Part shown: piece by piece, positions 28,201-54,536 of the stretch
How the letters are laid out: each line of letters opens with the position of its first letter
Numbering within the stretch: the stretch's first letter is position 1
Assembly: GCA_044356295.1 (NCBI GenBank)
Contig: JBIKWN010000008.1
Span: 1 to 64,000 of the forward strand
Direction of reading: 5' to 3'
DNA: 64,000 bases
From: Bdellovibrionota bacterium
Lineage (GTDB): Bacteria; Bdellovibrionota_C; UBA2361; JBIKWN01
Notes under the pieces: model-generated
Database searches by the model: none
Told to the model about the DNA's origin: nothing
The model's input: the letters and a program-made list of their open reading frames with translations, nothing else
Translations under genes and position numbers: made by a program

Positions 28201-28439
28201 TGATAACGAGGAACGGTATCTTTCACATACCCAGTTAAGAGGTGACCATAGTGTGGAAGTCCATTTGCGAACGGAGGCCCATCAAAAAATACATACTCTT
28301 TCGAGTTCCCAATTGATTTACCAGCAGGAGTATCAACAGATTTCTGGAATATTTTATTTTGTTTCCAAAATTCAAGTGTTTTTCGCTCTAGTTCAGGGTA
28401 GCTGACTTGTGATGGGACGTGGGGGTAGGGTGATTTCAT
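25284..28439 (-). CDS. ileS: Isoleucine--tRNA ligase, type 2 (eukaryote-like)
   Basis: DGPPFANGLPHYGH, GWDCHGLP, WTTTPWTLPSN, SRNRFWGTP, KLSKR; type-2 C-terminus without zinc finger. Confidence 0.97.
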   Translation of the reverse strand: MKSPYPHVPSQVSYPELERKTLEFWKQNKIFQKSVDTPAGKSIGNSKEYVFFDGPPFANGLPHYGHLLTGYVKDTVPRYHAMQGRKVDRRFGWDCHGLPAEMESEKELKVSGRQAIQEFGIDKFNENCRKSVLKYAHEWERYVNRQGRWVSFENDYKTMDLPYMESVVWAFSELYKKGLIYEGYRVMPYSWACETPLSNFEIRMDNSYRSRQDPAITVAYNLSEKDSDGVQTKILIWTTTPWTLPSNLAVAVGEEVEYSKIEKDGVRYILATAALARFKKEFEGHTVVQTFLGKELLGITYLPPFDYFKNHKNSFKVISGDFVTTEDGTGIVHMAPGFGEDDQRVCEANDIELVCPVDIAGKFTVEVSDYAGRQVQECNKDIIKNLKERGQLIRQDTIEHNYPHCWRTDTPLIYKAVSSWYVRVTDFKDRMVELNQQINWIPEHIKDGQFGKWLANARDWSISRNRFWGTPIPIWKSDDPRYPRTDVYGSLADIEKDFGVKVTDLHRPYIDQLTRPNPDDPTGKSTMRRVEEVFDCWFESGSMPYAQMHYPFENKEWFEKHFPADFIVEYVAQTRGWFYTLMVLSTALFDKPPFLNCMCHGVVLDEKGEKLSKRLRNYPDPEEMFEKVGSDALRWFLIASPILRGGDLNIDKDGKGISEIVRTVINPIWNAFYFFTLYANTDGIKGEVNCSSKALLDRYILGKLQVLVADTTKYFDAYDLAASCNSILQFIDALNNWYIRRSRDRFWKADKDQDKTDAYNTLYTVLVTLCKVAAPVLPMLTEEIYRTLTGEESVHLASFPKVSDFPSEVELATTMDTVRAVCSSGLSLREAHNLRTRLPLSKITVAGNGLEKIAPYDFLIKDEINVKSVEFATDFSAFASYQLALNARAIGPRLGEKMKTLLASAKAGDWKFANDGKVSVEGEVLLETEYTLRLISKEGVAAISLSDRSGVVVLDTAVTAELESEGLARDFVRGVQQLRKEKGFHVADHIEVTVVAPEHIRNSLTTHQKYIEEQVLAKKFFFATDTTSNGKQLEFSKVPVTGAELQVGVVK

Positions 28440-28582
28440 AGGGGCTTACTCTACCATAGTCATGAAGTCGAATGAAGGTGATATGTGTTAGGTATCTAGG
28501 CGGAATCAAAATCAGAATCTTCAACTAATTTGACATGACAGCGAAGAAAGCATGTAAAAGAGCCTTACTACGAGAGAAATAA

Positions 28583-28654
28583 TTGGTACAAGGTAACTCG
28601 GATTACTAAATACTGTCAGTAGTTTAACTCACAGGGAAAGTTACCCTGTACTAA
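28583..28654. repeat. REP-doublet (REPIN)-like 72-bp element, copy 1
   Basis: TTGGTACAAGGTAACT-N40-AGTTACCCTGTACTAA imperfect inverted arms. Confidence 0.8.
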
Positions 28655-28756
28655 AGACCTCTTCATGATTTTATTACAAAGAGGCAGGTTTCTATTTTCA
28701 AAATTTGAATTTTGTAATTCTTTACTGCTTAAAGATGGATTGATTTATGTAGGAAT

Positions 28757-29260
28757 TTAAAAGTCTTTAAAAGTTGGGGTAGAAGAATTCTTTAATTCTA
28801 AGAATTTTCGTCCTTCCTCAGAGACAAAACCTGTACACATACACTGCCTTCGCATGTTAAGCGTAACGGGAACAGGGAGAATAGCCCAAAATTTCGTACC
28901 TTCGCTAGTTTGTTGTACGCATTTGGGTTCGCTGGGAGACCAAAAAAACTTGGTGCTACTCTTATCGCAGCTCCATGTTCCACTAGCTTCTTCACAGCTT
29001 TTTTGAAGGCTCGCGAGTTGGCGGAGAAAGTCTGCTCTCACATCAAGATCCATTTCCGCCTTGAAATCCTTCAATGTATTCTTACAGTCTTCGAATCCAT
29101 CAGTGGGTCCGGGAGATTGTGTGACGCCGCCCGTTGGATACTCTATATACATGTTGAGTCCACTATGATAGCTATCAATTTTTCTTTCATCCTGTGAATG
29201 AGCAGTCAAGACTAATCCAAATGTAAATAACAACAAAAATCCTAGAACTCGAAATTTCAT
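28757..29260 (-). CDS. Secreted Cys-rich hypothetical protein
   Basis: Signal-peptide-like N-terminus; six Cys in the mature part. Confidence 0.7.
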   Translation of the reverse strand: MKFRVLGFLLLFTFGLVLTAHSQDERKIDSYHSGLNMYIEYPTGGVTQSPGPTDGFEDCKNTLKDFKAEMDLDVRADFLRQLASLQKSCEEASGTWSCDKSSTKFFWSPSEPKCVQQTSEGTKFWAILPVPVTLNMRRQCMCTGFVSEEGRKFLELKNSSTPTFKDF

Positions 29261-29460
29261 AAATCATCTCACTAAAAATTACCAAAAGAGATATGTGTAT
29301 ATACATTCTTTTGTGAGCAATTTGTACACTAAACAAAATAAATGAACATACGCTGAATATATCGTTTATTTTCAGAAAAACTTTAGAAATATTTGGCGAA
29401 AATTTATTGGTACAGGGTCACGACCATTAAGTTAAGAAATAACACCCTTCAAAAAACGAC

Positions 29461-29555
29461 AATAATAATTGGTACAATAATAATTGGTACAAGGTAACTA
29501 GGATTATATAATGATTTCAGAAGTTTAAATCATATTGAAAGTTACCCTGTACCAA
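29461..29555. repeat. REP-doublet-like element, copy 2 (29484-29555), with a 15-bp tandem duplication at its left end
   Basis: Same arms and 40-bp spacer as copy 1; AATAATAATTGGTAC twice at 29461-29490; further degenerate arm at 29407-29421. Confidence 0.8.
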
Positions 29556-29666
29556 AAACCTCTTTTTTACTACTGCTTTCACAGTGCTTGGGCTTCTAGT
29601 GCATATTATGGCTATTTCTCGAAACGATAACCGCTCTCCATACATCCTAACATTGTTTGGAGTTCA

Positions 29667-29703
29667 GAGAGAAAATAATTGGTACAAGGTAACTCGGATT
29701 ACT
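29667..29703. repeat. REP-like element, copy 3 (left arm only)
   Basis: GAGAGAAAATAATTGGTACAAGGTAACTCGGATTACT is near-identical to 28572-28607. Confidence 0.8.
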
Positions 29704-29812
29704 TAATAAAATTGATAGTTAGTAATGTAATAGTAAGATGGAAATTTTAAGAAAGTGTAGTCATTAAAGTTGGGCGCCACCAGGACCTATAAGTTAATTA
29801 CATACAAAATAA

Positions 29813-30406
29813 TCATCGGCAAAACCGCCCACTAATCTTATCCTGACCAGTTCGCACCCATTTGGTGGCGTTTCTTACCCCTACGTTTATACAAGGCTCA
29901 GTATCGCTGGTGTGACAACGCTCAATTTCGCACTGTCCGGATCCGTCTGAAACATACCTGAGGCTCCCTTCTACACAAGAGCACTGGATTTGAACGGTTG
30001 CAGGTACTACATTAGTTCCATTATACGTCCCAGAATTTTTGCAATCGTACTTCTTGTCTAGCGGAGTCCAATATTCAAACCGACAAGGAGAGCCGTACTC
30101 AACAGAATTTTTACACGCTGCAAGTTGTGCATCGATAAACGACTTTTCGATTGTGAGCTCATTACCTCCTACCTTGACTTCATACGACCCACAACGAGAT
30201 GGTTGTGGGCTTGAACCTTCGATACAGAAATCCTCACCACTGGTTACAAAATCAGATGTATAAACCGTACAAGCCCGAGTGTCAGAGCCCACTTTGGGGC
30301 AAACTCCCTCGACAAAAACTTTTCTACATGACTCCTCTGCGTTCGCAGAAAAAGAAACTACCAAAAGTAACGTGATAGCAGATGTTATAAATACCTTAAT
30401 CTTCAT
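29813..30406 (-). CDS. Secreted Cys-rich hypothetical protein
   Basis: Signal peptide ending ANA; many Cys; starts 2 bp after the caspase stop. Confidence 0.75.
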   Translation of the reverse strand: MKIKVFITSAITLLLVVSFSANAEESCRKVFVEGVCPKVGSDTRACTVYTSDFVTSGEDFCIEGSSPQPSRCGSYEVKVGGNELTIEKSFIDAQLAACKNSVEYGSPCRFEYWTPLDKKYDCKNSGTYNGTNVVPATVQIQCSCVEGSLRYVSDGSGQCEIERCHTSDTEPCINVGVRNATKWVRTGQDKISGRFCR

Positions 30407-30408
30407 CT

Positions 30409-31287
30409 CTAATACTCACCACTACTTGTATTTGACTCTAATGAACTCCTTGTTCCGAAACATTTAATCTTAGTATCTGCGATCTCTTCTCCAAAGACAC
30501 CAAAAGGCCTCTGAATTGGAGTGACAGGACCTTCTTTCCTCTTAGGCCCATGAAGATTGTAATTCGGATAATCGGCCCCCATGGAAAGATATGACTTTTC
30601 AGAAACTAACCATCTGGATAACTCTTCAACATCAACACAGTTATCATTGTCTACATCAGCATCTCTCATATGAGTTTTTAGATGCTTCATAAGAACACTC
30701 CCGTCTTTTTTCTCAAAAGCCAATTCATTGGAACCGCAAGCGGCAAAAAGTGCCAAATTTGAATCTAAAAGTGGATAAATGGGAATTTTAGGACAGAAGA
30801 ATGCGAATGCCCCTGAATAACAGGAATCTAATAATAAGATTCGTCTTACAGAAGTTCTCTGAAATAATAGCGCGTTCAGTAATGACTCTTCTGAGATATT
30901 TGCCTGCCTCGAATAAGCTAGAGCCTCAACAGGATAAAAAGAATACCTTCCACCTTCATGAGTACCGTGGCCTGACATGTGAATGATTACAAGATCATCA
31001 GGCGCAGCCTTTGCTATTGTGTAGCGAATATTTGACACAATAGCGTGCCACGTTGCTTGTTTATTTATAATTGTCGTTACATTTCCCTTAGAAAGCTGGG
31101 AGGTTTGATAGAAGAATTCTTTGCCTAATGAAATGTCAGTAGGAGGAGCATTTAACTTCAGAGCCCGTGAAGTATAGTCTCCAACTCCTACACCAACATA
31201 ATGAATTGTTTCGGCGGCAATCTGCTCAACAGGCAGAATTGAAATCAGAATTGATAGTAGTATGCTCTTAATATTCTTCTGGATCAT
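30409..31287 (-). CDS. Caspase-family (peptidase C14) protein with putative signal peptide
   Basis: IHMSGHG and LLDSCYSG dyad; EF-hand-like DADVDNDNCVDVEEL. Confidence 0.85.
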   Translation of the reverse strand: MIQKNIKSILLSILISILPVEQIAAETIHYVGVGVGDYTSRALKLNAPPTDISLGKEFFYQTSQLSKGNVTTIINKQATWHAIVSNIRYTIAKAAPDDLVIIHMSGHGTHEGGRYSFYPVEALAYSRQANISEESLLNALLFQRTSVRRILLLDSCYSGAFAFFCPKIPIYPLLDSNLALFAACGSNELAFEKKDGSVLMKHLKTHMRDADVDNDNCVDVEELSRWLVSEKSYLSMGADYPNYNLHGPKRKEGPVTPIQRPFGVFGEEIADTKIKCFGTRSSLESNTSSGEY

Positions 31288-32965
31288 TACTACCTCTTTT
31301 TATATCTGAATTTTCGTAAGAATTTTTATCAACTGATTTTTCAGCTGTCTCGGTTAATTTGATATCAGTAAAATCTTTCTGGGGAGATTGTGCATTTGAC
31401 CTGTTTGCAAAGATGCTCTTTGATTTTGGTAAAACAGATAATTCATAAACCTGAGATGAAAAATAAGCTGAGCTTCCCTTCCTCTTACTCTTGAATGAAA
31501 CAACCTTTTCGAATTCATCAACAGAGAAGGCAAAATATCCATTGATAATCTTACCGTTCTTAAGAATCGGACGAGCTCGAGTGCTCTTTGGAGGATACCA
31601 ATCGTCACCCCAAGAATTCTGAACTATATAGTGTTTTTTTGAGTTAATAATAGTCCTACCAACTATCACAGATCCATGAAGACCGGTATGAATTTGGCCC
31701 TTCGGAGGCTTTATAAGACCGTCGGTTATGTAACTAACGCCTATTGGACGCCTCATTTTTAAATACCTATCAACAAAACTTTCAGCACTCGCACGCCATC
31801 TTTTGACCGAAGCAATATTTGGTGAAATAGATAATCCATGTGAAATAGTTACTGGATATTGTCTCAGCACTATCGTTGCACGAATATTAGGCTTTTTTCC
31901 TATTCCTGGTCTTATATTAGGGCTGCATTTTATTTCTGTTATTCGATGAAGCATCTCATTGTATGAATCAAGCCTTTTTGAATGAGTACCTTTTGCAACG
32001 TCCTCTTTCATCAGTTTCATAAAATTTTCATTTTGTTTGGGACTGTAAATTCCAGAATGAAATTTCAAAAGCTCATTTAAAACGCTTTCATAGCTTTCTT
32101 TATATGAACTTAAATGAGTAAACATGACTCTATTATCCCCCCTAACTTCAGTCGTCAGATACCCAAAAGACACACATTCACCGATACTTTTGAATGGAGA
32201 CTGTAATTTAGTGTTAGAGAAGATTTTCTTACACCAATTTTCTATGATTAAAGAATCTAAACTGAAGGCATCGATATCTGATAAAGAATTTCGTTTCTTT
32301 AGCACTTCGGAAAGTTCAGATCCATCGAAAGTAGCCGTGGCCTTCTGCTCTAAGTATTTAAAATTAATTTCTGTTTCGGATTTATTCAAATAAAATGGAA
32401 ATCTCATTCCCAAAAGGTCGGTATGTTCCGAAAACAACTCCAGCATAGAATCTTGTGAATCATCTGAAAGGCACATACCGCGTAATGTAAATGGCGGATT
32501 TGAATTTATTGGAAACGTACGTGAACCAGGAGGAATACCAACTCTGTTTGGAATATTAAGCCCAGTATAATCAGATGATTTATTGCTTAGAATTCTACCC
32601 CCGCTAAATCCATAAATAGGACTCCTAAATGGTAAACCTTTGTATCTATCAGGATCGGTCTTCCTCAGACGCATTCCTGCCATATGTGCCAACACAGTGT
32701 AGTTAATTTTTCTGCCTGATACAGCGATTGGAGTGCTTGGAGATCCTTCAAAAGCATTGTAAATGAGGTAGTCTCCATTTGATGACATTGTTTTCATTGC
32801 ATGTTCAAGCATAAGACCTGCTGCGTACGCATAGCAGGTTCCATCGGGGCCCTGATCGGACACCGGACTTAGTTCATCTTTTAAAAAAATTGTTTGAGCA
32901 AAACAAATTGAGCTGGATAATGAAATTGCAAGAATAAAGTTTAGATTTATAAAAAATTTTCTCAT
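31268..32965 (-). CDS. Papain-like (C1) cysteine peptidase, secreted, with a large insertion
   Basis: DQGPDGTCYAY, GLHGSVIVG, YIVQNSWG; ATG 32965 overlaps the upstream TGA (ATGA) and precedes a signal peptide. Confidence 0.82.
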   Translation of the reverse strand: MRKFFINLNFILAISLSSSICFAQTIFLKDELSPVSDQGPDGTCYAYAAGLMLEHAMKTMSSNGDYLIYNAFEGSPSTPIAVSGRKINYTVLAHMAGMRLRKTDPDRYKGLPFRSPIYGFSGGRILSNKSSDYTGLNIPNRVGIPPGSRTFPINSNPPFTLRGMCLSDDSQDSMLELFSEHTDLLGMRFPFYLNKSETEINFKYLEQKATATFDGSELSEVLKKRNSLSDIDAFSLDSLIIENWCKKIFSNTKLQSPFKSIGECVSFGYLTTEVRGDNRVMFTHLSSYKESYESVLNELLKFHSGIYSPKQNENFMKLMKEDVAKGTHSKRLDSYNEMLHRITEIKCSPNIRPGIGKKPNIRATIVLRQYPVTISHGLSISPNIASVKRWRASAESFVDRYLKMRRPIGVSYITDGLIKPPKGQIHTGLHGSVIVGRTIINSKKHYIVQNSWGDDWYPPKSTRARPILKNGKIINGYFAFSVDEFEKVVSFKSKRKGSSAYFSSQVYELSVLPKSKSIFANRSNAQSPQKDFTDIKLTETAEKSVDKNSYENSDIKRGSNDPEEY

Positions 32966-35055
32966 GGCGCCAAACACCCTGCATAAGTCCACTGGCATGC
33001 ATACTGACAAGCACCACAGGTATCACCGTAACCAAGATATTCCCCCGTGCATGAACCTGTTTCACTATCAAAGCATGCAGATAAACATTCCTGTTTACAC
33101 TGTTCACACATTGGCCGGTTCTGATTTACTGGATTAATAGCATCAACGCACTCTTGTGATGGTCGATTGCCGTAGTATGGTTCTTGAAGATTACGCTCAC
33201 CACCGCAGGTGAAATAAACTTGAGTTCTCAGTCCACTAATATTTAGTTCAGAGGGATAACTTCTATCGTTTAGTTGGTAAATGTGTGTTCCCTGTGGCTC
33301 CATTCCTGCTGATACGGGGTCAGTTGAAATCTTATGACAGGTCCAGTACCGATCCTCGACCTCAATCTGTTCACCAAGATCGTTTTGTTCAAAAACAGGG
33401 GTCCCAACTGGGGGAACAAAATAGCAACTTAAAACCTTCTGACCATTCGGGCAAACATTTGGAGCATCACACGCAGAGTTTGATTCATCTCCACAACTTT
33501 CTCCACTGTCTTCAGCAATACTAACAGGAGTTTGCCATTGATCTGTCACACCTGCTTGCTTATGTAATGCATAAGAAGCAGCCATATAGTAAGGCATCGA
33601 TGAAATAAAACTTTGCTTCATTGGATCATCAACATCCGCAAAAGCACAGTGCTCTTCGGTATACTCCTTGCCGTCCCACGTAAATGTCATCAGACGATTT
33701 GCTCCACCTCTAATTTCACACAATGATGAAGCTGGATTAGACCCATCTATAATATGCTCTGCACTTAAAATTGCACCGTAATCAACGGGTGGAATAAGGG
33801 CTCTGCAATTTTTACTCAAACAGTCTTTAGTAAATAAAACTCCCGTTTCTGGGTTAAAACAGATCTCTCTTGTATCTGTAAGTGTTACCGGTGCATGAAT
33901 TTCAATGTCCAGCATTCTGCATGCAGTATCAGCAGGAGGCCAATTCGAAAACGAAGGAATACTTTTTAGTGTTGGTAATGGACTTACTACAGGCGTGGCA
34001 ACTGGAGTGTTCGTGGGATTACTGCCAGGAGGGATGGTTGAAGTTGCCTGGGGCGGCGGCGCGGTGACAGTGGGTGTTGATGAAACACCAGGTTGGGTTG
34101 TTGGAGTTCTGGGTGGAGTTCTGGTTGGAGTATTTGTTGCTGTTGGTGATGCTGAAGAAGGTGGCGAAGTCGTTGGATTCGCAATATTTGCAACAGTTAA
34201 TTGTTCAAGGTTGCTAGAAGCAACCACCCCTCCTGAGACATCAAAAAACTTTGCGCCGAATGAATATTGTCCATTTTGCAAACTTGTGGAATTCCAAGGT
34301 GCTGTAAAACGCTTAGAGTTATACGCTATCATTTCGAAGTTAGTGGCAGAAACTAAGTAAGAAGATGTGGTGGTTGTCTGCAACGCTGCTCTGCTTACTG
34401 AAAGTAGTGACTCAACGATCCTTTGATTTGATTGGACACAAAGGGGATCGGATGAGCCCTCATTACAACTGATCGCACAGCGAGGAGAATTACTCGCAAT
34501 TGGACAAAAGCAAGCTGTTACTGTCATCTGAACATCATAACTGCCAGATAAGCTAGATTGTGTAGGTAGGGGTAAAAAGCGATGCGCTCCTTTGAGACCG
34601 TACGAATTAAATCCAGGACAGGGTGCAACAATCAATGGACGGACTGTGGCTTGAGGAGATGAAGGAATACTGGTGGTTACAGGAAAGAGTGGCCCAATAG
34701 TAATTATGGGCGGCACAGGTTCATCTGAGCCCGGGGCCCCAGGTAAAGGCTCATCAAAGCCTGGAGGAACTCGAGTAGAAACAGGACGAGTAGAGACAGG
34801 AACTGACGAGGCAGTGGGTGAAATTGTAGTGTTAAAAGTCGGTAGTGGCGTCCTAGTGCTCAAAGGAGTGAGGTCAACTGTTGGGGAAGAATTTGGGACT
34901 TGAGTCGAAATTGCAATCGTCTCCCTTAACTCAGGCTGATTTTCGATCGTATCTGCAAGCGTGTTAAATGGAAACAATACCCAGATCAGCAGAGCAGAGA
35001 GCAGAGCAAGGGAAACTGGTAATCTGCGCAATTTTGACCTCAAATTAAACTGCAA
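32962..35055 (-). CDS. Exported modular protein: Pro/Thr linkers, Ig-like segment, DUF333-like motif, Cys-rich C-terminus
   Basis: Signal/TM; PT-rich tracts; WNSTSLQNGQYSFGAKFFD; GSNPASSLCEIRGG; upstream TTGACT-17-TAATTT. Confidence 0.7.
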   Translation of the reverse strand: MQFNLRSKLRRLPVSLALLSALLIWVLFPFNTLADTIENQPELRETIAISTQVPNSSPTVDLTPLSTRTPLPTFNTTISPTASSVPVSTRPVSTRVPPGFDEPLPGAPGSDEPVPPIITIGPLFPVTTSIPSSPQATVRPLIVAPCPGFNSYGLKGAHRFLPLPTQSSLSGSYDVQMTVTACFCPIASNSPRCAISCNEGSSDPLCVQSNQRIVESLLSVSRAALQTTTTSSYLVSATNFEMIAYNSKRFTAPWNSTSLQNGQYSFGAKFFDVSGGVVASSNLEQLTVANIANPTTSPPSSASPTATNTPTRTPPRTPTTQPGVSSTPTVTAPPPQATSTIPPGSNPTNTPVATPVVSPLPTLKSIPSFSNWPPADTACRMLDIEIHAPVTLTDTREICFNPETGVLFTKDCLSKNCRALIPPVDYGAILSAEHIIDGSNPASSLCEIRGGANRLMTFTWDGKEYTEEHCAFADVDDPMKQSFISSMPYYMAASYALHKQAGVTDQWQTPVSIAEDSGESCGDESNSACDAPNVCPNGQKVLSCYFVPPVGTPVFEQNDLGEQIEVEDRYWTCHKISTDPVSAGMEPQGTHIYQLNDRSYPSELNISGLRTQVYFTCGGERNLQEPYYGNRPSQECVDAINPVNQNRPMCEQCKQECLSACFDSETGSCTGEYLGYGDTCGACQYACQWTYAGCLAP

Positions 35056-35157
35056 GTTATATCCATAAAATTACATGTGCCATATCTGCTAGTCAACTTA
35101 ATAGTAATCTCTGTTGGGGCCCAACTTTGGCAGGAACCCTGGATCATTTGAGGGGGG

Positions 35158-35184
35158 TAACGGTGACGGGTAGCGTCACCGTTA
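35158..35184. other. Perfect 11-bp GC-rich stem-loop without a U-tract
   Basis: TAACGGTGACG-GGTAG-CGTCACCGTTA. Confidence 0.55.
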
Positions 35185-35242
35185 GTTCAGGTTCTCATCA
35201 GAGATAGATTGAAGAGCCAGGAGTATTGTTTTTTTAAAAATT

Positions 35243-35306
35243 GAGAATCATCAAAAATCAGGTCCAGGATCAATAAACCCATAAGTAGCAGTCTCGCCCG
35301 ATTCCC
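35243..35306 (-). repeat. Displaced duplicate of the dnaB 3' end
   Basis: 63/64 identical to 36372-36435; encodes ESGETATYGFIDPGPDF*. Confidence 0.95.
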
Positions 35307-35427
35307 TCGTTATCAATCAACTGTTTTTTCTGAACAGACCTAGCCCTAGAGGAGTAGGCACCATAATACCTAGTAGTAGAAGTCTCATTAGCATCGAATA
35401 ATCATCAGTTCATGATAGAGATGGGAT

Positions 35428-35841
35428 CTAGATTAAAGGGTTAACAACTCGAACGGATCCATAAAGACGATTATTTTGAAAATCCTCTGAGAGAATTAAA
35501 TCTGCTTTTATGGACTGCGCCGTGGCAAGAATAAGAGAATCCCAATATGATAGTTTTCGATTAATCTGCTCTTTAATAGCTGCAAGAATAATCTCTTCAT
35601 GTATTTGTACAACCTGCCACTGACAATAGTCCTTGATTATTTTTTGGCTTTGAGGTGCTGAAAGACCTCTTTTCAGAAAAGTTACGTGCAATTCGCTCAA
35701 AACTTGAGTGCTGATGTAGGGCCTTTCTAATTTATTCCAAAGATCTAAAACGATCCTCTGGGCTTTTTTCCTTTTTTCTCCAGCTGATGCATCGATAGCG
35801 TATACAAGTATATTAGTGTCTATAAAAACTTTGTTAGTCAT
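35428..35841 (-). CDS. PIN-domain toxin (VapC-like)
   Basis: VFIDTNILVYA, STQVLSE, SYWDSLI, LSEDFQ. Confidence 0.92.
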   Translation of the reverse strand: MTNKVFIDTNILVYAIDASAGEKRKKAQRIVLDLWNKLERPYISTQVLSELHVTFLKRGLSAPQSQKIIKDYCQWQVVQIHEEIILAAIKEQINRKLSYWDSLILATAQSIKADLILSEDFQNNRLYGSVRVVNPLI

Positions 35842-36061
35842 AAAGATTCTCCCTTAAGAGCTTCTTGGAATTTAACTTCACACCTTTATTCAGAATATTT
35901 AATGCGTGCTTTTTGGATTTGAGAAATCCTTTTCGTCGCAAAATCTCGTTTTCTATAAGCTTACTAACCCATGCAGAGATAGATTCATCGTCTTTTGCCG
36001 CAAATTGCTTGGTTTCATTAAGAATCGTATCAGCGAGTTTAAGTGTAATATTTTTTGCCAT
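35834..36061 (-). CDS. Antitoxin (ribbon-helix-helix/CopG-like)
   Basis: MAKNITLKL..., ends RENLYD overlapping the toxin start; ATG 36061 preferred over 36103. Confidence 0.8.
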   Translation of the reverse strand: MAKNITLKLADTILNETKQFAAKDDESISAWVSKLIENEILRRKGFLKSKKHALNILNKGVKLNSKKLLRENLYD

Positions 36062-36379
36062 AATAAAAGCACAGTAGCACAAAAACAGTGTAAAATCAAA
36101 CACGCAAAAGGTACGGGTAATAGGTAAGAAAAATCAAAATACCAACTAATACCTAGTAGTGGATTCCCATTTGTTTGGAATATGGGGAGTAATTCTTGCA
36201 AGAAATTCTAAAGCGGAGAATTCGTGGGTTTTGTTATCTTTTTCAGTTAGATAAGTAACAATATCGTCATCAATCTGTATTTTAGAATTAGCAACAGGTC
36301 CTCTATCGATGTATCTTGCAGACAGGTTGCTATCAATTTGAGAAGCCTGGAGTGTTGTTTTTTTTAGAATAGAGAATCA

Positions 36380-37849
36380 TCAAAAATCAGGTCCAGGATC
36401 AATAAACCCAAAAGTAGCAGTCTCGCCCGATTCCCCTTCACTTAACGAAACAACATCATCTCGCTCTTCAAGGTTATCGAATCGTGTAATCTCACCACTA
36501 AAGGCAAGTCGAATAATTCCAGTTGGACCACTTCTATGTTTACCAACGATTATCTCAGCAACACCTTTATCAGGACTATCTTGGTTGTACACTTCATCTC
36601 GGTAGATAAACATAATGATATCTGCATCCTGCTCGATTGCTCCTGACTCACGAAGATCCGACATCATTGGACGTTTATCATTTCGTTGCTCGAGTGATCG
36701 GTTAAGTTGTGACAGCGCAACAACAGGAACATTTAATTCTTTCGCGAGTGCTTTTAAAGAACGAGAAATATCAGCAATCTCTTGCTCACGACTATTTTGA
36801 TACGCAGGAGAGCGCATCAACTGCAAGTAATCGACAACGATAAGAGATAACTTATGCTCACGGTGTAACCTACGACATTTTGCACGCAGCTCATTGATTG
36901 GAAGAGCAGGGGTATCATCAATAAAAATCGGAGCTTCAGCAATTTTACTTGCAGAACTGACAAGCCGAGGAAAGTCATGTTCAGCAAGATTTCCAACTCG
37001 AACTTTTTGGTTCGGCACTCGAGCTTCAGAACAAAGCATACGAAGCACTAATTGTTCTTTACTCATCTCTAAACTAAAAAGAGCAACTGCACCGTGGCAA
37101 GTAATTCCTACGTGTTGCAAAATCGATAATGCCAGAGCTGTTTTCCCCATTGAAGGACGAGCTGCGATAATTATCAGATCTGAAGGTTGAAGCCCTGCAG
37201 TTTTTGCATCAAGTTTTATAAACCCAGTAGGAATACCTGTGATAGCGTTTTTGTTATCAAAGAGCTCTTCAATTTTACGAATCGAACCTTGAACAACATC
37301 GCTAATCTTATGAAACTCCGACCGTGCACGTGATTCTGAAACAGCTAAGATTTCTTGCTCTGAAGTATCAAGAAAAGTTTCAATATTTGCATCGTCAGTA
37401 TAAGCGTTACCAATGACATTACCAGCAGCGCGGATCATCTTGCGCCGCAGTGATTTTTCTTTAACAAGCTTTGCGTAATACAAAGTATTAGCAGCCGAAG
37501 GCACAGCAGTAGAGAGCCTTCCTAAATATTCAAGTCCTCCAATTTCATCGAGGCAACTTTTACTTCTTAACGCTTCACCTAATGTGATGATATCGATAGG
37601 CTTACTCTCTTTATCAAGAGTAGACATTGCTTCGAAAATTTTTTGGTGACTAATACGGTAGAAATCTTCAGCAGTAAGTACTTGAAGCGCCTCACTCATT
37701 ACTTGGTTATCAATAAGCACTGCACCTAGGACAGATTCCTCTGCTTCGTTGGTATGAGGAGGCATGCGCCCAGGCGAAAAGCTCTGAGAATTTGAATCGT
37801 TAAGATCTACTGGACGTTTTTTGTTATTAGCAGATTTAGGATACGACAT
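36380..37849 (-). CDS. dnaB: Replicative DNA helicase
   Basis: AARPSMGKT, FSLEMS, VDYLQL, LSQLNR, DLRESGAIEQDAD. Confidence 0.98.
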   Translation of the reverse strand: MSYPKSANNKKRPVDLNDSNSQSFSPGRMPPHTNEAEESVLGAVLIDNQVMSEALQVLTAEDFYRISHQKIFEAMSTLDKESKPIDIITLGEALRSKSCLDEIGGLEYLGRLSTAVPSAANTLYYAKLVKEKSLRRKMIRAAGNVIGNAYTDDANIETFLDTSEQEILAVSESRARSEFHKISDVVQGSIRKIEELFDNKNAITGIPTGFIKLDAKTAGLQPSDLIIIAARPSMGKTALALSILQHVGITCHGAVALFSLEMSKEQLVLRMLCSEARVPNQKVRVGNLAEHDFPRLVSSASKIAEAPIFIDDTPALPINELRAKCRRLHREHKLSLIVVDYLQLMRSPAYQNSREQEIADISRSLKALAKELNVPVVALSQLNRSLEQRNDKRPMMSDLRESGAIEQDADIIMFIYRDEVYNQDSPDKGVAEIIVGKHRSGPTGIIRLAFSGEITRFDNLEERDDVVSLSEGESGETATFGFIDPGPDF

Positions 37850-37861
37850 GCACTCTATGTT

Positions 37862-38551
37862 CTAGCGCCAAATCGATTCGGAATCAATCAAATCTACCCA
37901 TTTTGCAGCAGATTTCATTTTATCTCCGGTAGCCATAGTACTAAAATCTGCCGTCACTGTGTCTGCTCCAAAAAATGAAGCCAGCGAAATAGGATAACTT
38001 AAATCCCTACCAGGTGTAACAACAGTTACAACCCTAAGAACTGAACTATTCGCTTGTTTTTCTTCGTCGATATTTGCATCTTTTTGTGGTGCATCATCTT
38101 TTTGCTGATTACCATTTGAAAAAAGATATGAATCGAATGCCCGTGTGTGATCGTCTGGGAGGTAACTAAAGTCTCGGCTTAATTCATTTTTCCCTAGAGC
38201 AAAGGCAATCATGTCTGCTGCCATTTCGACATCAGTTGTTACTTGGCGTTCAATGCCTACTGGGGGAAGTCTTTTTAAGATAACTTCAAATCCAGCACGA
38301 TAGACAACATCAAAGAATGAATGTTGACGAGAATCATCTTCATTAGGAATAACTGAATAGTAACGAGCTACTTTCGGTTCAAGTCCACCAGAGAGGCTCT
38401 TTAAAAGAGCTGCAAAGTCTACTTTCTTATTGGTACGACGTGACGCTCGGTCAAGGTTGATACCGTCTACAAAAATCCCAATTTCTCTTCGCTGAGTGCG
38501 CTTAACAACGCCTTTTTTAACCTTCTCAAAGGACATAGAACTTCTTCCCAA
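37862..38551 (-). CDS. NYN domain protein (LabA/DUF88-like)
   Basis: IFVDGINL, ARYY, DVEMAADM. Confidence 0.7.
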   Translation of the reverse strand: MGRSSMSFEKVKKGVVKRTQRREIGIFVDGINLDRASRRTNKKVDFAALLKSLSGGLEPKVARYYSVIPNEDDSRQHSFFDVVYRAGFEVILKRLPPVGIERQVTTDVEMAADMIAFALGKNELSRDFSYLPDDHTRAFDSYLFSNGNQQKDDAPQKDANIDEEKQANSSVLRVVTVVTPGRDLSYPISLASFFGADTVTADFSTMATGDKMKSAAKWVDLIDSESIWR

Positions 38552-38671
38552 AATAAAAATTCAATAGATTTGCATTGAAGCAGATACAGACCAATCGCAA
38601 TAAATAAGTATGACCTTTAAACTAAAGGGTCTACAGAAAAAGAGGAAAGGTGAGAACCTGAAGAGCAGGGG

Positions 38672-39280
38672 TTAGGGAATAACCTGAACCTTTGCTCCGA
38701 CATCAAGAGAATAATATATCTTTTTCATCTTCTCGTCATCTATGCGAAGTCCGCCAACTTCTTCAGTCCATACAGGTGCCGAGTGAATTGATGCATCGCT
38801 GTCGACAAAAAGGGCAAAATCTCCAAGAGCTCCGCGACGATAGCGCTCTTTGTCACCTATTGAGGGGACAGCTAATCCACGCAAGGAAAAGTACTCGTCT
38901 CCAGCATACCAAAGAGGGGAGCGCTGTTTATGTTGTACTGAATAGACACCAGGCTGAAGTGGAAGAACGCCTTCAATCTTTGACTCATCCACTACATTTG
39001 AGCCTTTCATTAAAACTAATTTGTTTTCAGCTAATTCAACTTTAAGCCAAATCGAATCTTTATCGGAAACAGAGTCAGGCATAAAGCCAAGAAGCGTTGC
39101 AGGAGAAGCGACTGGAGGAGCGACTCTATTTAAGGAAATATAACCACCAGCATACTGGGTTTTTTGAAGGTCGATATCTGTTGGACTTTTGTAGAGTGAG
39201 CATCCAGAAAATGCTAATCCGCTAAAAATCAAAACTGATAAAGAAAGAGTAAAACGAGCAAAACCAACATTGTTATTCAT
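38672..39280 (-). CDS. L,D-transpeptidase (YkuD)-like lipoprotein lacking the catalytic Cys
   Basis: Lipobox FSGC; PG.Y.V..K...PLW, GALG, IH, but GGLR in place of HGCIR. Confidence 0.65.
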   Translation of the reverse strand: MNNNVGFARFTLSLSVLIFSGLAFSGCSLYKSPTDIDLQKTQYAGGYISLNRVAPPVASPATLLGFMPDSVSDKDSIWLKVELAENKLVLMKGSNVVDESKIEGVLPLQPGVYSVQHKQRSPLWYAGDEYFSLRGLAVPSIGDKERYRRGALGDFALFVDSDASIHSAPVWTEEVGGLRIDDEKMKKIYYSLDVGAKVQVIP

Positions 39281-39399
39281 AAGAGTGGAGTTTAGCAGGG
39301 GAAGGGGGAAAAGAAGAAGTATTAAAATAATATAACAATGTTATGAAATATGCCAAAAGCGGGGCTTGGAGCTCTTCCCTTATCTAGTGGTTTTAGTCC

Positions 39400-40191
39400 A
39401 TGATCTATCTCGCCATGAAAAGCCCTACTCGAAATAAATACAAAATTGTCCTTATACTGGCAGCCCTCTTCCTGCTTTCAGGATGTTCCACTCTATCTTC
39501 TATTGTTTTGTTTGGACCTGAGGATTCTAACCCTACCCCTCCAGTTCTTGTGTCTAAAGTCCCTGTTCTTAAAACTACCGAATCTCAAAAAACAACAATC
39601 GCTGCAAAACGTGCTTCAAAGCTTCCAGCAGTTGAGCTCACGATGAACCGAGCGGTTCAGAAAGAGCTCGATAATCTGAAATCTCAACCTAGAACTGTTG
39701 AGCGTGCTCTAGTAGGACGAGATGAACATGCTAATCAAATTGAACAGATTTTTAAGGACGAGGGAGTACCTGCTGACTTGGTAAATGTCGCTTTCGTTGA
39801 AAGTGGTTTTAACGAGAAAGCAAAAAGCCCTGCTGGAGCAGTTGGTCTTTGGCAACTTATGAAATCTACAGCTCAGTATTACGGTTTGAAAGTTAATCAT
39901 TCTGAGGATCAACGTAAGGATGTTGTGCTCTCTAGTTTGGCAGCAGCTAGACACCTACGAGATCTCTATAACAACTATGACGATTGGCACTTAGCTCTTG
40001 CGGCTTATAACTTTGGTGTCGGTGGCATCGAAAGAGCAATGGCGCGGGGTAATACTCGTGACTTCTGGGAGCTTGTTCAAAAAGGTCTAGTTCCTAAGGA
40101 GACAGCTCGGTTTGTTCCAAAAATTCTTGCCGCTGCAATTATTATGAAAAATCCTGAAGAACACGGATTTGATTCTGTAAATATCGGTTAA
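39400..40191 (+). CDS. Lytic transglycosylase (SLT/MltD-like) lipoprotein
   Basis: LSGC lipobox; VESGF, AGAVGLWQLM, LALAAYN, ETARFVPK. Confidence 0.9.
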   Translation: MIYLAMKSPTRNKYKIVLILAALFLLSGCSTLSSIVLFGPEDSNPTPPVLVSKVPVLKTTESQKTTIAAKRASKLPAVELTMNRAVQKELDNLKSQPRTVERALVGRDEHANQIEQIFKDEGVPADLVNVAFVESGFNEKAKSPAGAVGLWQLMKSTAQYYGLKVNHSEDQRKDVVLSSLAAARHLRDLYNNYDDWHLALAAYNFGVGGIERAMARGNTRDFWELVQKGLVPKETARFVPKILAAAIIMKNPEEHGFDSVNIG

Positions 40192-40682
40192 TGGCTACCC
40201 CAGTCCCTCAGATACGAGTCGGTCAAGGAATCGACCTTCATCGATTTTGTGAAGGAAGCTCTGTAACGCTTGGTGGAATTAAGATCCCATTTGATAAATC
40301 TCTTGAGGGGCATTCAGATGCTGACGTCTTGCTTCATGCGATAATGGATGCGCTCCTCGGAGCAGCAGGTTTAAAGGATATCGGCCATTTTTTTCCTAAT
40401 ACTGACCCTACATTACGAGGCATCAGTAGTTTAAAGCTACTTGAAAAGGTAAGACTTGAATTATTAAAAAGCGGCTGGTTAGTTGGAAATATAGACGCAA
40501 CGATTGTGGCTGAAGCTCCAAAAATTAATCCTCATGTGTCATTGATGAAAGAAATAATATCGCGGGCTCTTTGTGTGGACTTGGATCAGATTGGTATCAA
40601 AGCTACCACTGCCGAGTCTCTCGGTAGCATTGGAAGAGGTGAAGGGATATTTGCATCTGCTGTCGCTCTCATTTACAAATAG
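40191..40682 (+). CDS. ispF: 2-C-methyl-D-erythritol 2,4-cyclodiphosphate synthase
   Basis: RVGQGIDLH, GHSDADV..HA..DALLGA, DIG..FP, IKATTAE. Confidence 0.95.
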   Translation: MATPVPQIRVGQGIDLHRFCEGSSVTLGGIKIPFDKSLEGHSDADVLLHAIMDALLGAAGLKDIGHFFPNTDPTLRGISSLKLLEKVRLELLKSGWLVGNIDATIVAEAPKINPHVSLMKEIISRALCVDLDQIGIKATTAESLGSIGRGEGIFASAVALIYK

Positions 40683-40686
40683 GATA

Positions 40687-41043
40687 ATGAAACAAGATTC
40701 TCTTTTAGTCCGTGGTATTAAACAAAAATTTAAAATTGGTTGCACTGCCGATGAGCGTGCATGGCCTCAGCTTTTAACTTTAGATATCAAAGTTGAATTT
40801 GATATGAAAAAAGCGATCGTGTCGGATGAGCTTACAGATACCGTTGATTATGTTTCGCTTATCAGTTTAGTTGAGTCACAAGCTTTGGAAAACGAATGGA
40901 AGTTAGTTGAAAAGCTTTCGTTTGATATTGGGCAAACGATTCTTGCGAAATGGAAGTTTGTTGACAGCACAACTGTTTCAGTTGCAAAGCGTATTAGTGA
41001 AAAATGTGATGATATTGTTTGCGAAGTTATTTGTTCCCGTTGA
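40687..41043 (+). CDS. folB: Dihydroneopterin aldolase
   Basis: IG...ER..PQ, SDEL.DTVDY, LVE; ATG 40687 just after ispF. Confidence 0.85.
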   Translation: MKQDSLLVRGIKQKFKIGCTADERAWPQLLTLDIKVEFDMKKAIVSDELTDTVDYVSLISLVESQALENEWKLVEKLSFDIGQTILAKWKFVDSTTVSVAKRISEKCDDIVCEVICSR

Positions 41044-41072
41044 GCAGTAGCATTACACTGCGCCCAGTAACC

Positions 41073-42269
41073 CTAGCTAAGAATTCCAGTGTCAAAAATC
41101 CTTTGCAATCCATGCATCCAAGGTAAGATCGAAACGTCATCAACTTTGCGCGGATGATTTTCTCTGCACAAAATCAGCAGATCCGAATTCTTAAAATCAT
41201 TTTTAAAGCGAGAGAGTTTATTAATTTCAACATCAGATACTTTGGTTGAAGATTTTATCTCAATGAGCAGAGTCTTTTCTCCAGGTTTTTGCATAATGAG
41301 GTCAATTTCAGCATCATCTTTTGTTCTAAGATATGAGCATGAATAATCTTTTCGATAATAACTGTTCAGACGATGAATTTCTAAAATAATAAAATGTTCG
41401 AATAAATTTCCAAATTCATATGATTGTTCAGAAACTGGTATGTCAAGCATAGTCCGCAGTGCTCTCTGGACTCCGATATCGAAAAAATAGAATTTAGGAT
41501 TTTGACGTTGCTGTTTCCTTACTGATTCATGATGAGCCGGTAAGAATAGGCCGAGTAATGTCTCTTCTAATATTTGAAAATATCTTGCGACGGTTTTCGA
41601 ATCTGTTTGGCAATCTCTTCCTATAGCAGCATAGTTGATAATTTTACCAGAGGACTGAGCCGAAACTTCAAGAAAACGAACAAATGGATCTAAATTTCGG
41701 ATGATTTGTTCTTCTCTAATTTCTTCTCGAAGATAGGTTCCAATGTAGCTCTTAAGGAGTTCCTTTTTAACAGTTATATTTTGTTCGACGGAAATATGCG
41801 GTAGCGACCCAAATTGTAATACCTCCAATAAATTAAAATCCACCCCAAGTTCTGTAGAAGTAAACGGAAATAAATTATTCATCAATGCACGTCCACCTAG
41901 TAAATTGGCACCACCGTGTTTTAACTTTCTTGCGCTTGAACCAGTCAGAGCAAAGAGTAACTTATGTTTGTAGGACCCATGTTCTATGAGGCGATGAACC
42001 TCGTTAAGAAGTTTTGGTATTTTTTGAACTTCATCGATGACAACAAAAAGAGGTGATGCATCAGCAGTAGATAATTTTTCATCAATCCTATGCTGCAAAG
42101 TCTTAGGCGCACGACTAAATTGCAGATAATTTTCATCGTCAAGAAGATCAATCCAAAGGTGATTTCGACCCTCAAAAATGCTTTTTAATAATGAAGATTT
42201 ACCTGTAGATCTTGCTCCAAAAAGAAAAAAACTATTTGATATTAATGGGTTACATAGCCTGCGGTACAT
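41073..42269 (-). CDS. AAA+ ATPase with DUF4143 / PD-(D/E)XK-like C-terminus
   Basis: GARSTGKS, IDEVQK, TGSSA, KFYFFDIG, EIDLI...IEIK. Confidence 0.9.
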   Translation of the reverse strand: MYRRLCNPLISNSFFLFGARSTGKSSLLKSIFEGRNHLWIDLLDDENYLQFSRAPKTLQHRIDEKLSTADASPLFVVIDEVQKIPKLLNEVHRLIEHGSYKHKLLFALTGSSARKLKHGGANLLGGRALMNNLFPFTSTELGVDFNLLEVLQFGSLPHISVEQNITVKKELLKSYIGTYLREEIREEQIIRNLDPFVRFLEVSAQSSGKIINYAAIGRDCQTDSKTVARYFQILEETLLGLFLPAHHESVRKQQRQNPKFYFFDIGVQRALRTMLDIPVSEQSYEFGNLFEHFIILEIHRLNSYYRKDYSCSYLRTKDDAEIDLIMQKPGEKTLLIEIKSSTKVSDVEINKLSRFKNDFKNSDLLILCRENHPRKVDDVSILPWMHGLQRIFDTGILS

Positions 42270-42314
42270 GTGCCGAAATTATCGGCTATTTTAGGCCCTA
42301 ATGCAAGGTTAAGA

Positions 42315-42356
42315 AAAAATGCGATGATATTGTTTGCGCGGTCACTTGCGAGCGTT
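42315..42356 (+). repeat. Displaced, diverged duplicate of the folB 3' end
   Basis: 42315-42338 matches 41000-41023 at 23/24; translates KCDDIVCAVTCER versus folB KCDDIVCEVICSR. Confidence 0.85.
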
Positions 42357-42368
42357 TACTTCGAGTTT

Positions 42369-44054
42369 CTAGAATAGACTCGAAAGACCTTTCAACGCCC
42401 CACCTTTTTTACCAAGCCCCTTTTCAAGGGCTTTAACAGCAGCATCTTTGAGCGCAGCTCCAGCAGCAGACTTCATAATTTTTTGAACATCAGGAAGCAC
42501 AACAACATTTGGAACAGTCCCTTCAATTTTTACAGGGATTGAAAGTGAACCATCAGGATTTAATGCTTTTTGAAGATCTTTTGCAGAAGCTACCAACATT
42601 GTTGCAAGCTCAGGTTTGATCGTGAGTGTTGAATTAAGTTTTGTTGCACCGCTTAATGCGTACGTTCCTGAAAGCTCAATCGAGTAAGGGAGTGCATCTA
42701 ATATAACGTTAGAAAGAGTTGCGGTTGTTCCTTTCACTCCAAGAGAACCTTTCAAAGACAGAAAAGTAGTATCCGAAGCATCGACAAGTGTTTTAACGGC
42801 AGGAGTCATAGACATCGAAAGTGAGTCACCTAGAACGGGAATTGAAGTGAGTTTCTTGATAGATTCCCCAAGGATATTGATTCCTTTAATCCCACCATTT
42901 TCAACGACAAAATTAAAAGAACCTGATGCGCTATTCATAGCGTCGAGAACTTTTGCATCAAGAGAACCAGTCACACTTGTGATAGTACCAAATAATGTTA
43001 CTGGTAGTGCTGGTGCTACTCCTTTCATAGCTTGTTCAATCGATATGCCTTTTATCTCGATATCTTTTGAAGAGAACAGATTAGGGACTAATTGATCGAA
43101 AGAAAGCTCACCCTTTACAGAGAATGTTCCATTAAACACATCTGCAACAAACTGAGTAATAGTGGCGGTTGAGCCATTTTTAGCAATAGAGCCATTGATA
43201 GTGCCAGGAACATTCAATGCAGAAAGTGCAGGAGCAATCTGTTTTAGGACTGTAAGAATTTTATCAATTGAAAGTACTTTGAGATCAACTTTGATTTCAT
43301 CTTTTTCTGTTGGAGCAAAGATTTCTCTTAAGGCACCTTGAATATCGATTGAACCATCAAATATTTTTAATGATAGATTTGATGGAATAAGTTCTTTATT
43401 TTGAAGATTTACTAAAATGTTATCAGCTGCAATTTGTAAAGGTGCTTGTAGCGCATTAGCCAAGAGCTTGACGTTTGTAAGTGTTGAAGTACCTGTACTG
43501 ATAGATGCACCAGAAGAAAAATGAATATCTGAAATCACGACCGGATTAGCTGTAAATCCGTCCATCGAGATTTTTCCATTTTCAACAGAGAGCCTTTCGA
43601 GATTAAGCGTAATTGGAATTTGAGGGATATCTTTTGAGCCAATATTTTTTTCGTTTGATAATGGCTTTACGGTATTGTTTTTGGTGCTCGGCGCAGTTTC
43701 AACCTTACCCTTAGTAACAGTTACATTAGGTTCTTTTAAAGAGAGCTCGTGTATGACGATTTCACCTTTAAGAAGGGGGAATAAAGAAGCAAGAAGAGTT
43801 GCATTGTTGAGTGTGATGACTGAGGGACTGTTTGGCTCGCCAATTGAGAGCATTTCAAGAACAAAAACGGTCTCGGGGAATACTTTTGCTTTAATTTTAC
43901 CAAAGGTAACTTTTGTTCCAAGGCTCGTAGATAGTGTCTCCTCGAGCTGAGGTTTGACGCTGGCAATGAGTGATTCAGCCTTGTAGCTAGCAATGAAAAG
44001 AGCTCCACAAAAAAGCAGGAAAGCAAGGGCGAGAAACGCAAGTATCTTTTTCAT
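42369..44054 (-). CDS. AsmA-family protein
   Basis: N-terminal TM, SL.PLL.GEI.I.E..L..P motif, beta-rich repeats, IPVKIEGT..N..V.PD end. Confidence 0.75.
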   Translation of the reverse strand: MKKILAFLALAFLLFCGALFIASYKAESLIASVKPQLEETLSTSLGTKVTFGKIKAKVFPETVFVLEMLSIGEPNSPSVITLNNATLLASLFPLLKGEIVIHELSLKEPNVTVTKGKVETAPSTKNNTVKPLSNEKNIGSKDIPQIPITLNLERLSVENGKISMDGFTANPVVISDIHFSSGASISTGTSTLTNVKLLANALQAPLQIAADNILVNLQNKELIPSNLSLKIFDGSIDIQGALREIFAPTEKDEIKVDLKVLSIDKILTVLKQIAPALSALNVPGTINGSIAKNGSTATITQFVADVFNGTFSVKGELSFDQLVPNLFSSKDIEIKGISIEQAMKGVAPALPVTLFGTITSVTGSLDAKVLDAMNSASGSFNFVVENGGIKGINILGESIKKLTSIPVLGDSLSMSMTPAVKTLVDASDTTFLSLKGSLGVKGTTATLSNVILDALPYSIELSGTYALSGATKLNSTLTIKPELATMLVASAKDLQKALNPDGSLSIPVKIEGTVPNVVVLPDVQKIMKSAAGAALKDAAVKALEKGLGKKGGALKGLSSLF

Positions 44055-54373: not shown

Positions 54374-54423
54374 AAACCTACTTCTTTTCAAATACCGTAA
54401 CTGCGCTTAAACCACTTAAAACC

Positions 54424-54478
54424 TTCAAGATTAACTTGAACTAGGTTAAAGGTAAGTGGCTGTAACCCATTATGTCAA
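54424..54478 (-). promoter_or_regulatory. Sigma70 promoter (TTGACA-18-TACCTT) with a downstream dyad TTCAAG-N5-CTTGAA
   Basis: -35 at 54473-54478, -10 at 54449-54454, dyad at 54424-54440. Confidence 0.55.
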
Positions 54479-54536
54479 TCGGCAATTTTTGAAATAATTA
54501 CTTTAACTTACTTATAGTATTATGTTTTTCAGGACC

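Follow-up and report, generated by a model that had tools for sequence, protein, structure and literature searches.

In a 64,000-nt stretch of the genome of a Bdellovibrionota bacterium, referred to here as the window (contig JBIKWN010000008.1, positions 1-64,000, or C23), the two housekeeping genes dnaB and folB are each followed by an accessory insert (islets 1 and 2, respectively) and then by an orphan copy of their own 3' end. With a probability of roughly 0.6, these structures do not represent a system and are scars that arose when DNA from relatives, anchored by homology, was recombined illegitimately. This reading draws on an insertion polymorphism, the anatomy of the repeats, remnants of a transposase gene of the IS91 family, further cases at other genes and in other phyla, a coding type of divergence between the tail copies and one orphan that is native. 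The genome (G000; 2.96 Mb in 128 contigs, 38.6% G+C) was compared with G002, the sole usable relative of the same genus (~24% nucleotide divergence; 88% amino acid identity for DnaB). A set of 2491 genes, called by a simple custom picker of open reading frames (ORFs), was scanned by aligning each gene tail against its own downstream 5 kb, with reversed tails as the null; the sorting of scan matches and the boundaries of codon cores were set by eye. Read-level evidence consisted of assembled Logan contigs from independent lake-water runs (contigs only).

Tail duplications behind dnaB and folB

Islet 1 lies behind an intact replicative helicase gene (dnaB, 36380..37849, minus strand, 489 aa; Pfam DnaB_C E 1.4e-112, DnaB E 2.1e-33). 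The last 53 coding nt of dnaB, together with the stop codon and 42 nt downstream (36338..36435, minus strand), were found by repeat search a second time at 35209..35306 (minus strand; also recovered by the tail scan). The two copies measure 98 nt, are identical at 90/98 positions (92%) with a longest identical run of 39, and are spaced by 1129 nt. The orphan translates as ESGETATYGFIDPGPDF with the stop codon retained and a single F>Y difference, and the mismatches fall at 1/56 coding against 7/42 non-coding positions (Fisher p = 0.019). The dnaB tail scored 53 and the folB tail 21, whereas reversed tails of the 2491 genes reached a maximum of 16. A dispersed repeat was ruled out for the dnaB sequence, which occurs twice in the whole genome as compared with 10 to ~160 matches in four dispersed-repeat families.

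The 1031 nt between the dnaB repeats carry a PIN toxin-antitoxin (TA) pair. The PIN toxin gene (35428-35841, minus strand; Pfam PF01850, E 1.2e-12) overlaps by 8 nt with a small upstream ORF (35834-36103, minus strand) that matches DUF6364 with E 2.5e-4 and 21.9 bits, below the curated cut-off of 27.3; with this family match below the cut-off, the layout would fit a putative type II pair of the VapBC kind. A search for a PIN donor in metagenome contigs returned three loci at 29–37% identity and no donor. An integron cassette was rejected for the TA pair, attC size being the yardstick, since the 47 nt after the PIN stop are too short for such a site. The 34 nt that close the TA cassette (35380-35413) are found again, at 91%, on a 2.6-kb contig (C126:2245-2278) whose translations also read as a pair of the RelE/ParE type, a split resolvase-like gene and a fragment of a reverse transcriptase.

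The TA cassette (35381..36146, minus strand, 766 nt) is nested inside a fragment of an IS91-family transposase gene. Piece 1 of this fragment (36147..36320, minus strand; residues ~265-321 of 415) was detected by tblastn, blastn and Pfam, and matches a copy on contig C66 at 93% over 57 aa (tblastn) and 87% over 174 nt (blastn), with a Pfam Y2_Tnp match at 36149-36319 (25.9 bits vs a cut-off of 20.9). Piece 2 (35310..35380, minus strand; residues ~317-340) matches C66 at 86% over 71 nt by blastn and 87.5% over 24 aa by tblastn. On the minus strand, reading away from the dnaB repeat gives a sequence that ends in ARYIDRGPVANSKIQIDDDIVTYLTEKDNKTHEFSALEFLARITPHIPNKWESTTRY and a stop, and that resumes as STTRYYGAYSSRARSVQKKQLIDNE past the PIN gene. 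Because the two pieces share 17 nt of transposase coordinates, found as a duplication around the cassette (36147-36163 and 35364-35380, 16/17 identical), the TA cassette is itself an insertion with a 17-nt duplication.

Islet 2 follows folB (40687..41043, plus strand, 118 aa; Pfam FolB E 5e-18). By repeat search and tail scan, the gene-attached tail up to the stop codon (41000..41043, plus strand) is paired with an orphan tail at 42315..42358 (plus strand; KKCDDIVCAVTCERL), which has TTA at the stop position; the pair spans 44 nt with 34/44 identical and a longest identical run of 16, and the repeat search itself gives 34 nt at 85%. The 1271 nt between these repeats begin with a 21-nt filler (41044..41064, by direct reading) that has no match elsewhere in the genome. 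A 24-nt IS91 transposase piece follows (41065..41088, minus strand; codons for LEFLARVT, residues ~300-307), 22/22 and 23/24 identical to two C66 copies. This piece encodes the final five codons and the stop of the cargo gene, an ATPase of 398 aa with AAA_14 and DUF4143 domains (41073..42269, minus strand; Pfam E 1.2e-18 and 1.2e-31), and homologous insertion-sequence DNA continues across this point in one metagenome contig. The DUF4143-type C-terminal domain of COG1373 ATPases is listed among the PD-(D/E)XK nucleases in the available text of a published compilation (PMC3424549). A gap of 10 nt separates the orphan tail from the stop codon of the gene that bounds the folB site in convergent orientation (42369..44054, minus strand, 561 aa; weak YhdP/DUF748 matches below cut-off).

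Neither islet is present in G002, where the region is collinear. The folB tail occurs there once, its stop separated by 2 nt from that of the convergent gene's orthologue, and ileS begins 57 nt after dnaB; at the dnaB site the G002 3' flank is unalignable, so that a single copy is demonstrated for the coding tail only. Because ileS (25284-28439 in the window) comes 57 nt after dnaB in G002, the stretch 28440-36379 is wholly extra, and the orphan dnaB tail sits mid-way in it. Contigs of independent lake-water runs support the arrangement: record 7 of run X1 covers 36381-42600, records 13 and 16 of run X2 also cross junctions, and record 18 of run X3 covers 35277-36401, across islet 1. An assembly artefact was ruled out on the basis of these crossings and of the non-identity of the repeat copies. 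Contig depth was the same over the islet as over its flanks, and the raised depth at piece 1 (36147..36320) stems from other copies of the insertion sequence.

The initial annotation, made from the window alone, had described both genes as followed by inserts and orphan copies of their last codons, with TA or ATPase-nuclease-like cargo and with repeat pairs that are unrelated in sequence and unequally diverged, and all of this was borne out. Its claim that no recombinase gene is involved holds for intact genes, since Pfam finds no recombinase or integrase domain in or beside the islet ORFs, but not for remains, in view of the IS91 fragments of 174 and 71 nt in islet 1 and 24 nt in islet 2; the outcome that it had named as refuting its proposal, with each case tracing to a decayed integrase-bearing element in relatives, is thus approached in part by the mobile-element remains in both islets. 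The leaderless-type promoters that it had read ahead of the cargo were not recovered above chance by a consensus scan, which gave 12 sites in the region vs 16.4 expected and none at cargo starts; by eye, TTGCAT-N17-GATAAT ends 8 nt ahead of the ATPase ATG.

Recurrence in the genome and at DUF4143 ATPase loci

The genome-wide scan of gene tails that the initial annotation had proposed yields further cases beyond the null. Fifteen of the 2491 tails match their own downstream DNA at a score of at least 17, vs 0 reversed tails, and they comprise five cargo-bearing orphan tails, one cargo-less tandem copy (contig C4), one segmental duplication and eight others, made up of paralogues together with a CRISPR array and a repeat element. 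In addition to dnaB and folB, the cargo-bearing orphan tails belong to a GT87 gene (C52), a greA/B-type gene (C128) and a cupin gene (C57); the cargo at C52 is a DUF433 gene with a decayed DUF5615 ORF (Pfam), and at C128 it encodes an 860-aa protein of no assigned family. Two orphan gene heads with cargo were also found, on C34 and C70, the copies lying upstream. The C34 head repeat extends over 135 nt at 98% and encloses a gene for a methyltransferase-domain protein, and the C70 head belongs to a putative glmU (read from sequence) and encloses panE (Pfam). Because heads are duplicated as well, with such cargo, the process is not tail-specific and its cargo is not solely of the defence type to which the earlier description had restricted it.

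Several observations were made alongside these loci. At C4:20521-21296 an SDR-like gene (read from sequence) has its final ~100 nt and the adjoining downstream DNA repeated in tandem, in a unit of ~385 nt with 77–81% identity and no gene between the copies. At C128:43485-44343 a 147-aa ORF lies upstream of the greA/B-type gene where the orthologous G002 site has 36 nt instead, and it is another small insertion at that locus. A CRISPR array on C100 (~2800-6700; 29-nt repeat CGGTTCATCCCCGCGCACGCGGGGAACAC) gave false tail and head matches.

Homologues of the islet 2 ATPase were collected at 80 loci (at most 52% identity), mostly in metagenome-assembled genomes (MAGs) of Bdellovibrionota and also in several other phyla, and 67 of them had flanks long enough for a direct-repeat test. 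Eight of the 67 have flanking direct repeats of at least 33 bits, the maximum of the reversed-sequence null being 29.5; three of these are flanking paralogues or tandem arrays and five are tight duplications of 17–106 nt. At L055 (lysR), L058 (cobD) and L080 (an Smr-domain ORF) the duplication overlaps an adjacent gene at its 3' end, a 33-nt repeat lies just beyond the stop of a HEPN-type gene at L057, and the anchor at L061 was not identified. At a further locus, L020, the repeat is a gpx tail of 24 nt that retains a stop codon of its own; its score equals the null maximum. The copies are fully identical at L057 (33/33) and L055 (17/17). No integrase was found among the 40 ORFs of the six duplication-flanked loci, and next to the L057 orphan there is one fragment of an ISL3 transposase. 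Among G000 genes of comparable size picked at random, 10/364 had flanking repeats of at least 33 bits, mostly in cassette-like arrays of dispersed repeats, vs 8/67 at the ATPase loci (p = 0.003).

These ATPase genes also tend to occur close to one another: three are consecutive at L061:4001-8075 (a Pseudomonadota MAG contig), and at L020:4001-6976 (a Bdellovibrio MAG) two of them flank gpx, adjoining recA.

Diverged alleles or local copies

In the scheme favoured here, the donor, a related strain or species, would supply DNA with its own dnaB or folB 3' end followed by accessory DNA. One end of the incoming DNA would pair homologously with the resident gene and the other would be joined illegitimately within or just ahead of the resident tail, with the result that the gene would finish in the incoming tail, the cargo would come next and the resident tail would be stranded downstream as an orphan. 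Such homology-facilitated illegitimate recombination (HFIR) would produce an insertion whose target is duplicated over a long stretch, and survival would be limited to outcomes that leave the essential gene intact. The duplicated stretch would nearly always include a gene end because gene spacing is tight (2 nt and 57 nt in G002). The cargo would be neighbouring DNA of the donor, namely a PIN cassette sitting inside a dead copy of IS91 and a gene for a DUF4143 ATPase joined to IS91 scrap; the simplest account of the IS91 pieces is that they belonged to the DNA behind these genes in donors. The tail copies would accordingly be alleles, the incoming DNA bringing a diverged homologue of the anchor. 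For dnaB and folB we infer the direction of transfer, and likewise the route by which DNA was taken up and how enzymes made the illegitimate joint.

The divergence of the tail copies was examined by codon position over the alignable cores of seven pairs (dnaB, folB, C52, C128, C57, L020 and L058; 142 codons), with L055 and L057 left out as identical and L061 and L080 because their frame was not set. The differences are distributed as 16:14:47 over codon positions 1:2:3 (chi-square p = 1.6e-6), the differing codons being 35 synonymous and 27 non-synonymous, and the third-position share of 47/77 exceeds the assumed value of 0.44 expected for an in-situ copy that subsequently decays (p = 0.002). 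The orphan stop codon is aligned with that of the gene in dnaB, C128, C57, L020 and L055. Because of the third-position excess and the contrast between coding and non-coding positions at dnaB, both copies appear to have evolved as coding tails over most of their divergence.

The native copy can be recognized most clearly at C52, where nucleotide homology to G002 ends within the GT87 gene at C52:891 and restarts at 2396, which is the start of the orphan. This orphan is nearer to the G002 tail than the gene-attached tail is (90/186 vs 78/187), with diagnostic residues common to the orphan and G002, and GT87 identity to G002 drops from ~0.70 to 0.17–0.62 past residue 100. Judged by this comparison, the orphan is the resident tail, and the 3' two-thirds of the gene with the TA pair are foreign. 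The phylogenetic check of native tails suggested by the initial annotation thus succeeds for C52, but the copies at dnaB, folB and C128 are near-equal with respect to the ~24%-diverged G002.

This last result belongs to a series of observations that weigh against exchange with relatives. Both folB tails match the ~24%-diverged G002 equally (own count), the C128 tails do so nearly equally (60 vs 57 of 90), and identity to this genome along dnaB, folB and ileS shows no breakpoint. The one coding base at which the dnaB copies differ is non-synonymous in the orphan. The folB orphan is without a stop codon and its codon differences are four non-synonymous vs three synonymous, which fits decay as well as an allelic origin. 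The codon count itself is built on cores set by eye, with four pairs omitted, and the excess of repeats at ATPase loci becomes weak when the three paralogue or tandem loci are set aside (5/67 vs 10/364, p = 0.067). No donor genome was found, the nearest PIN relatives in metagenomes being at most 37% identical. Finally, because duplications of 17–24 nt (and the identical run of 16 at folB) are too short to act as anchors in their own right, the anchor would have to sit further upstream in the gene.

The principal competing explanation is duplication in situ, whereby the copies would be identical at birth and the orphan would decay afterwards; it is considered unlikely, albeit with several features in its favour. 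Homologous pairing would need longer stretches than the shortest duplications offer. Duplications are nested, the 17 nt around the TA cassette lying within the 98-nt duplication, and unrelated scraps occur at the joints (the 24-nt IS91 piece with the 21-nt filler), as serial template switches would leave. The C4 gene tail stands in tandem (~385-nt unit) without cargo. Some pairs are identical, as at L057 and L055, but exchange between strains that are nearly identical would be just as likely to give such pairs. Moreover, neutral decay predicts neither the third-position excess nor the contrast at dnaB, and at C52 it is the gene-attached tail that is the odd one in comparison with G002, with the foreign stretch running ~800 nt into the gene.

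The proposal of the initial annotation that a target-independent, homology-anchored route is at work is therefore favoured, on the grounds of the empty G002 sites, the further unrelated genes, the third-position differences and the native orphan at C52. Its suggestion of an undescribed system is not, since the mechanism itself is not new: the islets match both insertion with long target duplication (PMC2853133) and HFIR with C-terminal displacement (PMC5361080). The former was described by Nobusato et al. (2000), as cited by Furuta, Abe and Kobayashi (2010; PMC2853133), whose available text reports two cases in Haemophilus influenzae with a 46-bp repeat overlapping a gene 3' end by 15 and 2 bp. 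As there, a small insert missing in a relative is flanked by imperfect direct repeats of >30 bp (98 and 44 nt here) without a linked integrase, the inserts are shorter than 20 kb (1031 and 1271 nt) and an insert-free relative, in this case G002, holds one copy of the repeat. Unlike that survey, in which linked mobile-element genes were excluded by design and the cargo consists of restriction-modification genes, both inserts here contain dead internal IS91 pieces and the cargo is a PIN TA pair and a DUF4143 ATPase gene. The survey, in its available text, leaves the mechanism open, whereas the codon-position bias and C52 point to exchange between diverged alleles. As for C-terminal displacement, the available text of Kirchberger et al. 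(2017; PMC5361080), which cites Jackson 2009, Prudhomme 2002 and de Vries & Wackernagel 2002, explains orphaned 3' regions in Rhs, contact-dependent inhibition and type VI secretion system effector loci by HFIR. There too a module is anchored in a conserved upstream part and joined illegitimately, and the old 3' part is kept downstream. Those loci, however, are polymorphic toxins with a variable 3' payload (PMC5361080), while the displaced housekeeping tails described here closely resemble the new ones and the payload consists of separate genes behind the stop codon.

Mobile elements, neighbouring repeats and significance of the scars

Since pieces of one IS91-family transposase gene are found in both islets, a decayed element of the IS91 or ISCR (insertion sequence common region) type has to be considered. 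Read-through of such an element would pick up a gene tail, the resulting circle would re-enter by homologous recombination and thereby duplicate the tail, and the element would then erode; read-through and circle capture of this kind have been proposed for ISCR1 and the class 1 integron 3' conserved segment. In ISCR1-type capture the IS91-family element stands by conserved sequence, with cargo between two partial copies, whereas only dead transposase fragments are present here and most other scars are without an IS91 trace. An intact 415-aa transposase with Zn_Tnp_IS91 and Y2_Tnp domains is found on C66 only, where two copies lie on either side of another ATPase gene; of 31 related genomes, G000 included, 14 contain Y2_Tnp genes, and the 39-nt identical core of the dnaB repeat would suffice for homologous recombination. 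The folB repeat, on the other hand, is too diverged for it, with a longest identical run of 16. The islets hold only internal pieces of the transposase gene, with no element ends identified, and, to our knowledge, IS91 transposition itself produces no long duplication. Additionally, no significant IS91 trace was found at the C52, C128, C57, C34 and C70 cases, nor any significant fragment in the 80 ATPase loci of other genomes (best E 0.068 and 0.56). Taken with these observations, an eroded IS91-type element appears improbable as the origin of the tails.

The IS91 copies of this genome have features of their own. At C66:1-4665 two transposase genes that are 87% identical, one of them cut by the contig end, bracket a 487-aa ATPase gene (1579-3042), and together they may form a composite or read-through unit. 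Dead fragments at C89:5731-5928, C40:13757-13933, C12:24005-24115, C104:30954-31045 and 36147-36320 of the window start or stop within the same ~40 codons (residues ~265-305), a region that may be a hotspot of breakage or insertion, and both cargo cassettes of the window adjoin transposase residues 300-321.

A quite doubtful possibility is that AAA_14-DUF4143 (COG1373) ATPase genes are single-gene selfish elements that promote their own insertion behind gene ends. The protein would make a break that gives a long and variable target duplication, as has been suspected for restriction-modification genes. If true, this would account for the eight copies of the family in a 3-Mb genome, and for the position of at least 6 of the 68 copies examined, in several phyla, between duplicated flanks, most of which overlap or adjoin the 3' end of a neighbour. 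Of the eight DUF4143 genes in G000, only the copy at folB is accompanied by a duplicated gene tail, and no conserved cassette ends were found among seven ATPase inserts, three of which share only a promoter-like GACTATACT motif.

Least credible of all is a set of integrase-less remnants of site-specific islands (similar to cis-mobilizable elements), moved in trans by a tyrosine recombinase with the tails as attachment sites: integrative elements do frequently target gene 3' ends and bring a replacement tail, and three Phage_integrase genes exist in the genome (C38, C116 and C18), but these are on other contigs and an integrase is absent in or beside every islet examined, no sequence is common to the repeats of different islets, whose lengths run from 17 to ~116 nt, gene heads are duplicated too, and the run contigs, a weak test, show equal depth over islet and flanks and no excess of empty sites, with no empty-site or excised joint listed across either islet, which from contigs says little.

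Beyond the orphan dnaB tail, the DNA up to ileS (28440..35208) is likewise absent from G002 and contains genes for secreted proteins together with three copies of a 75-nt repeat; for a 697-aa downstream protein no homologue was found in G002, and genome G001 gave a single weak match over 61 residues. The 75-nt repeat (window copies at 28575-28648, 29479-29549 and 29673-29707; 24 matches genome-wide) bears terminal inverted repeats (GGTAACTT...AAGTTACC) and sits between small secreted-protein genes. Five copies form a cassette-like array at C27:2643-8132, and some adjoin IS91 gene fragments (C12:24108-24171 and C39:5431-5496). At C38:54182-63800 a Phage_integrase-family gene (54182-54781) is followed by a gene array whose spacers are ~92-nt imperfect-palindrome repeats (~55728, 58781, 60942, 61421 and 63695), with a second type at 56231 and 62080; from its layout, this array has the appearance of a chromosomal integron that carries attC sites.

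Recombination with the DNA of relatives, as favoured here, implies that an ordinary process suffices to place accessory genes after essential ones, with no dedicated recombinase. In an uncultured freshwater bacterium such as this one, the stranded tails can serve as a record of what was resident and what was incoming. Scars of this kind offer a cheap marker of recent gene gain in MAGs, and the codon-position test separates the exchange of alleles from duplication on the spot.

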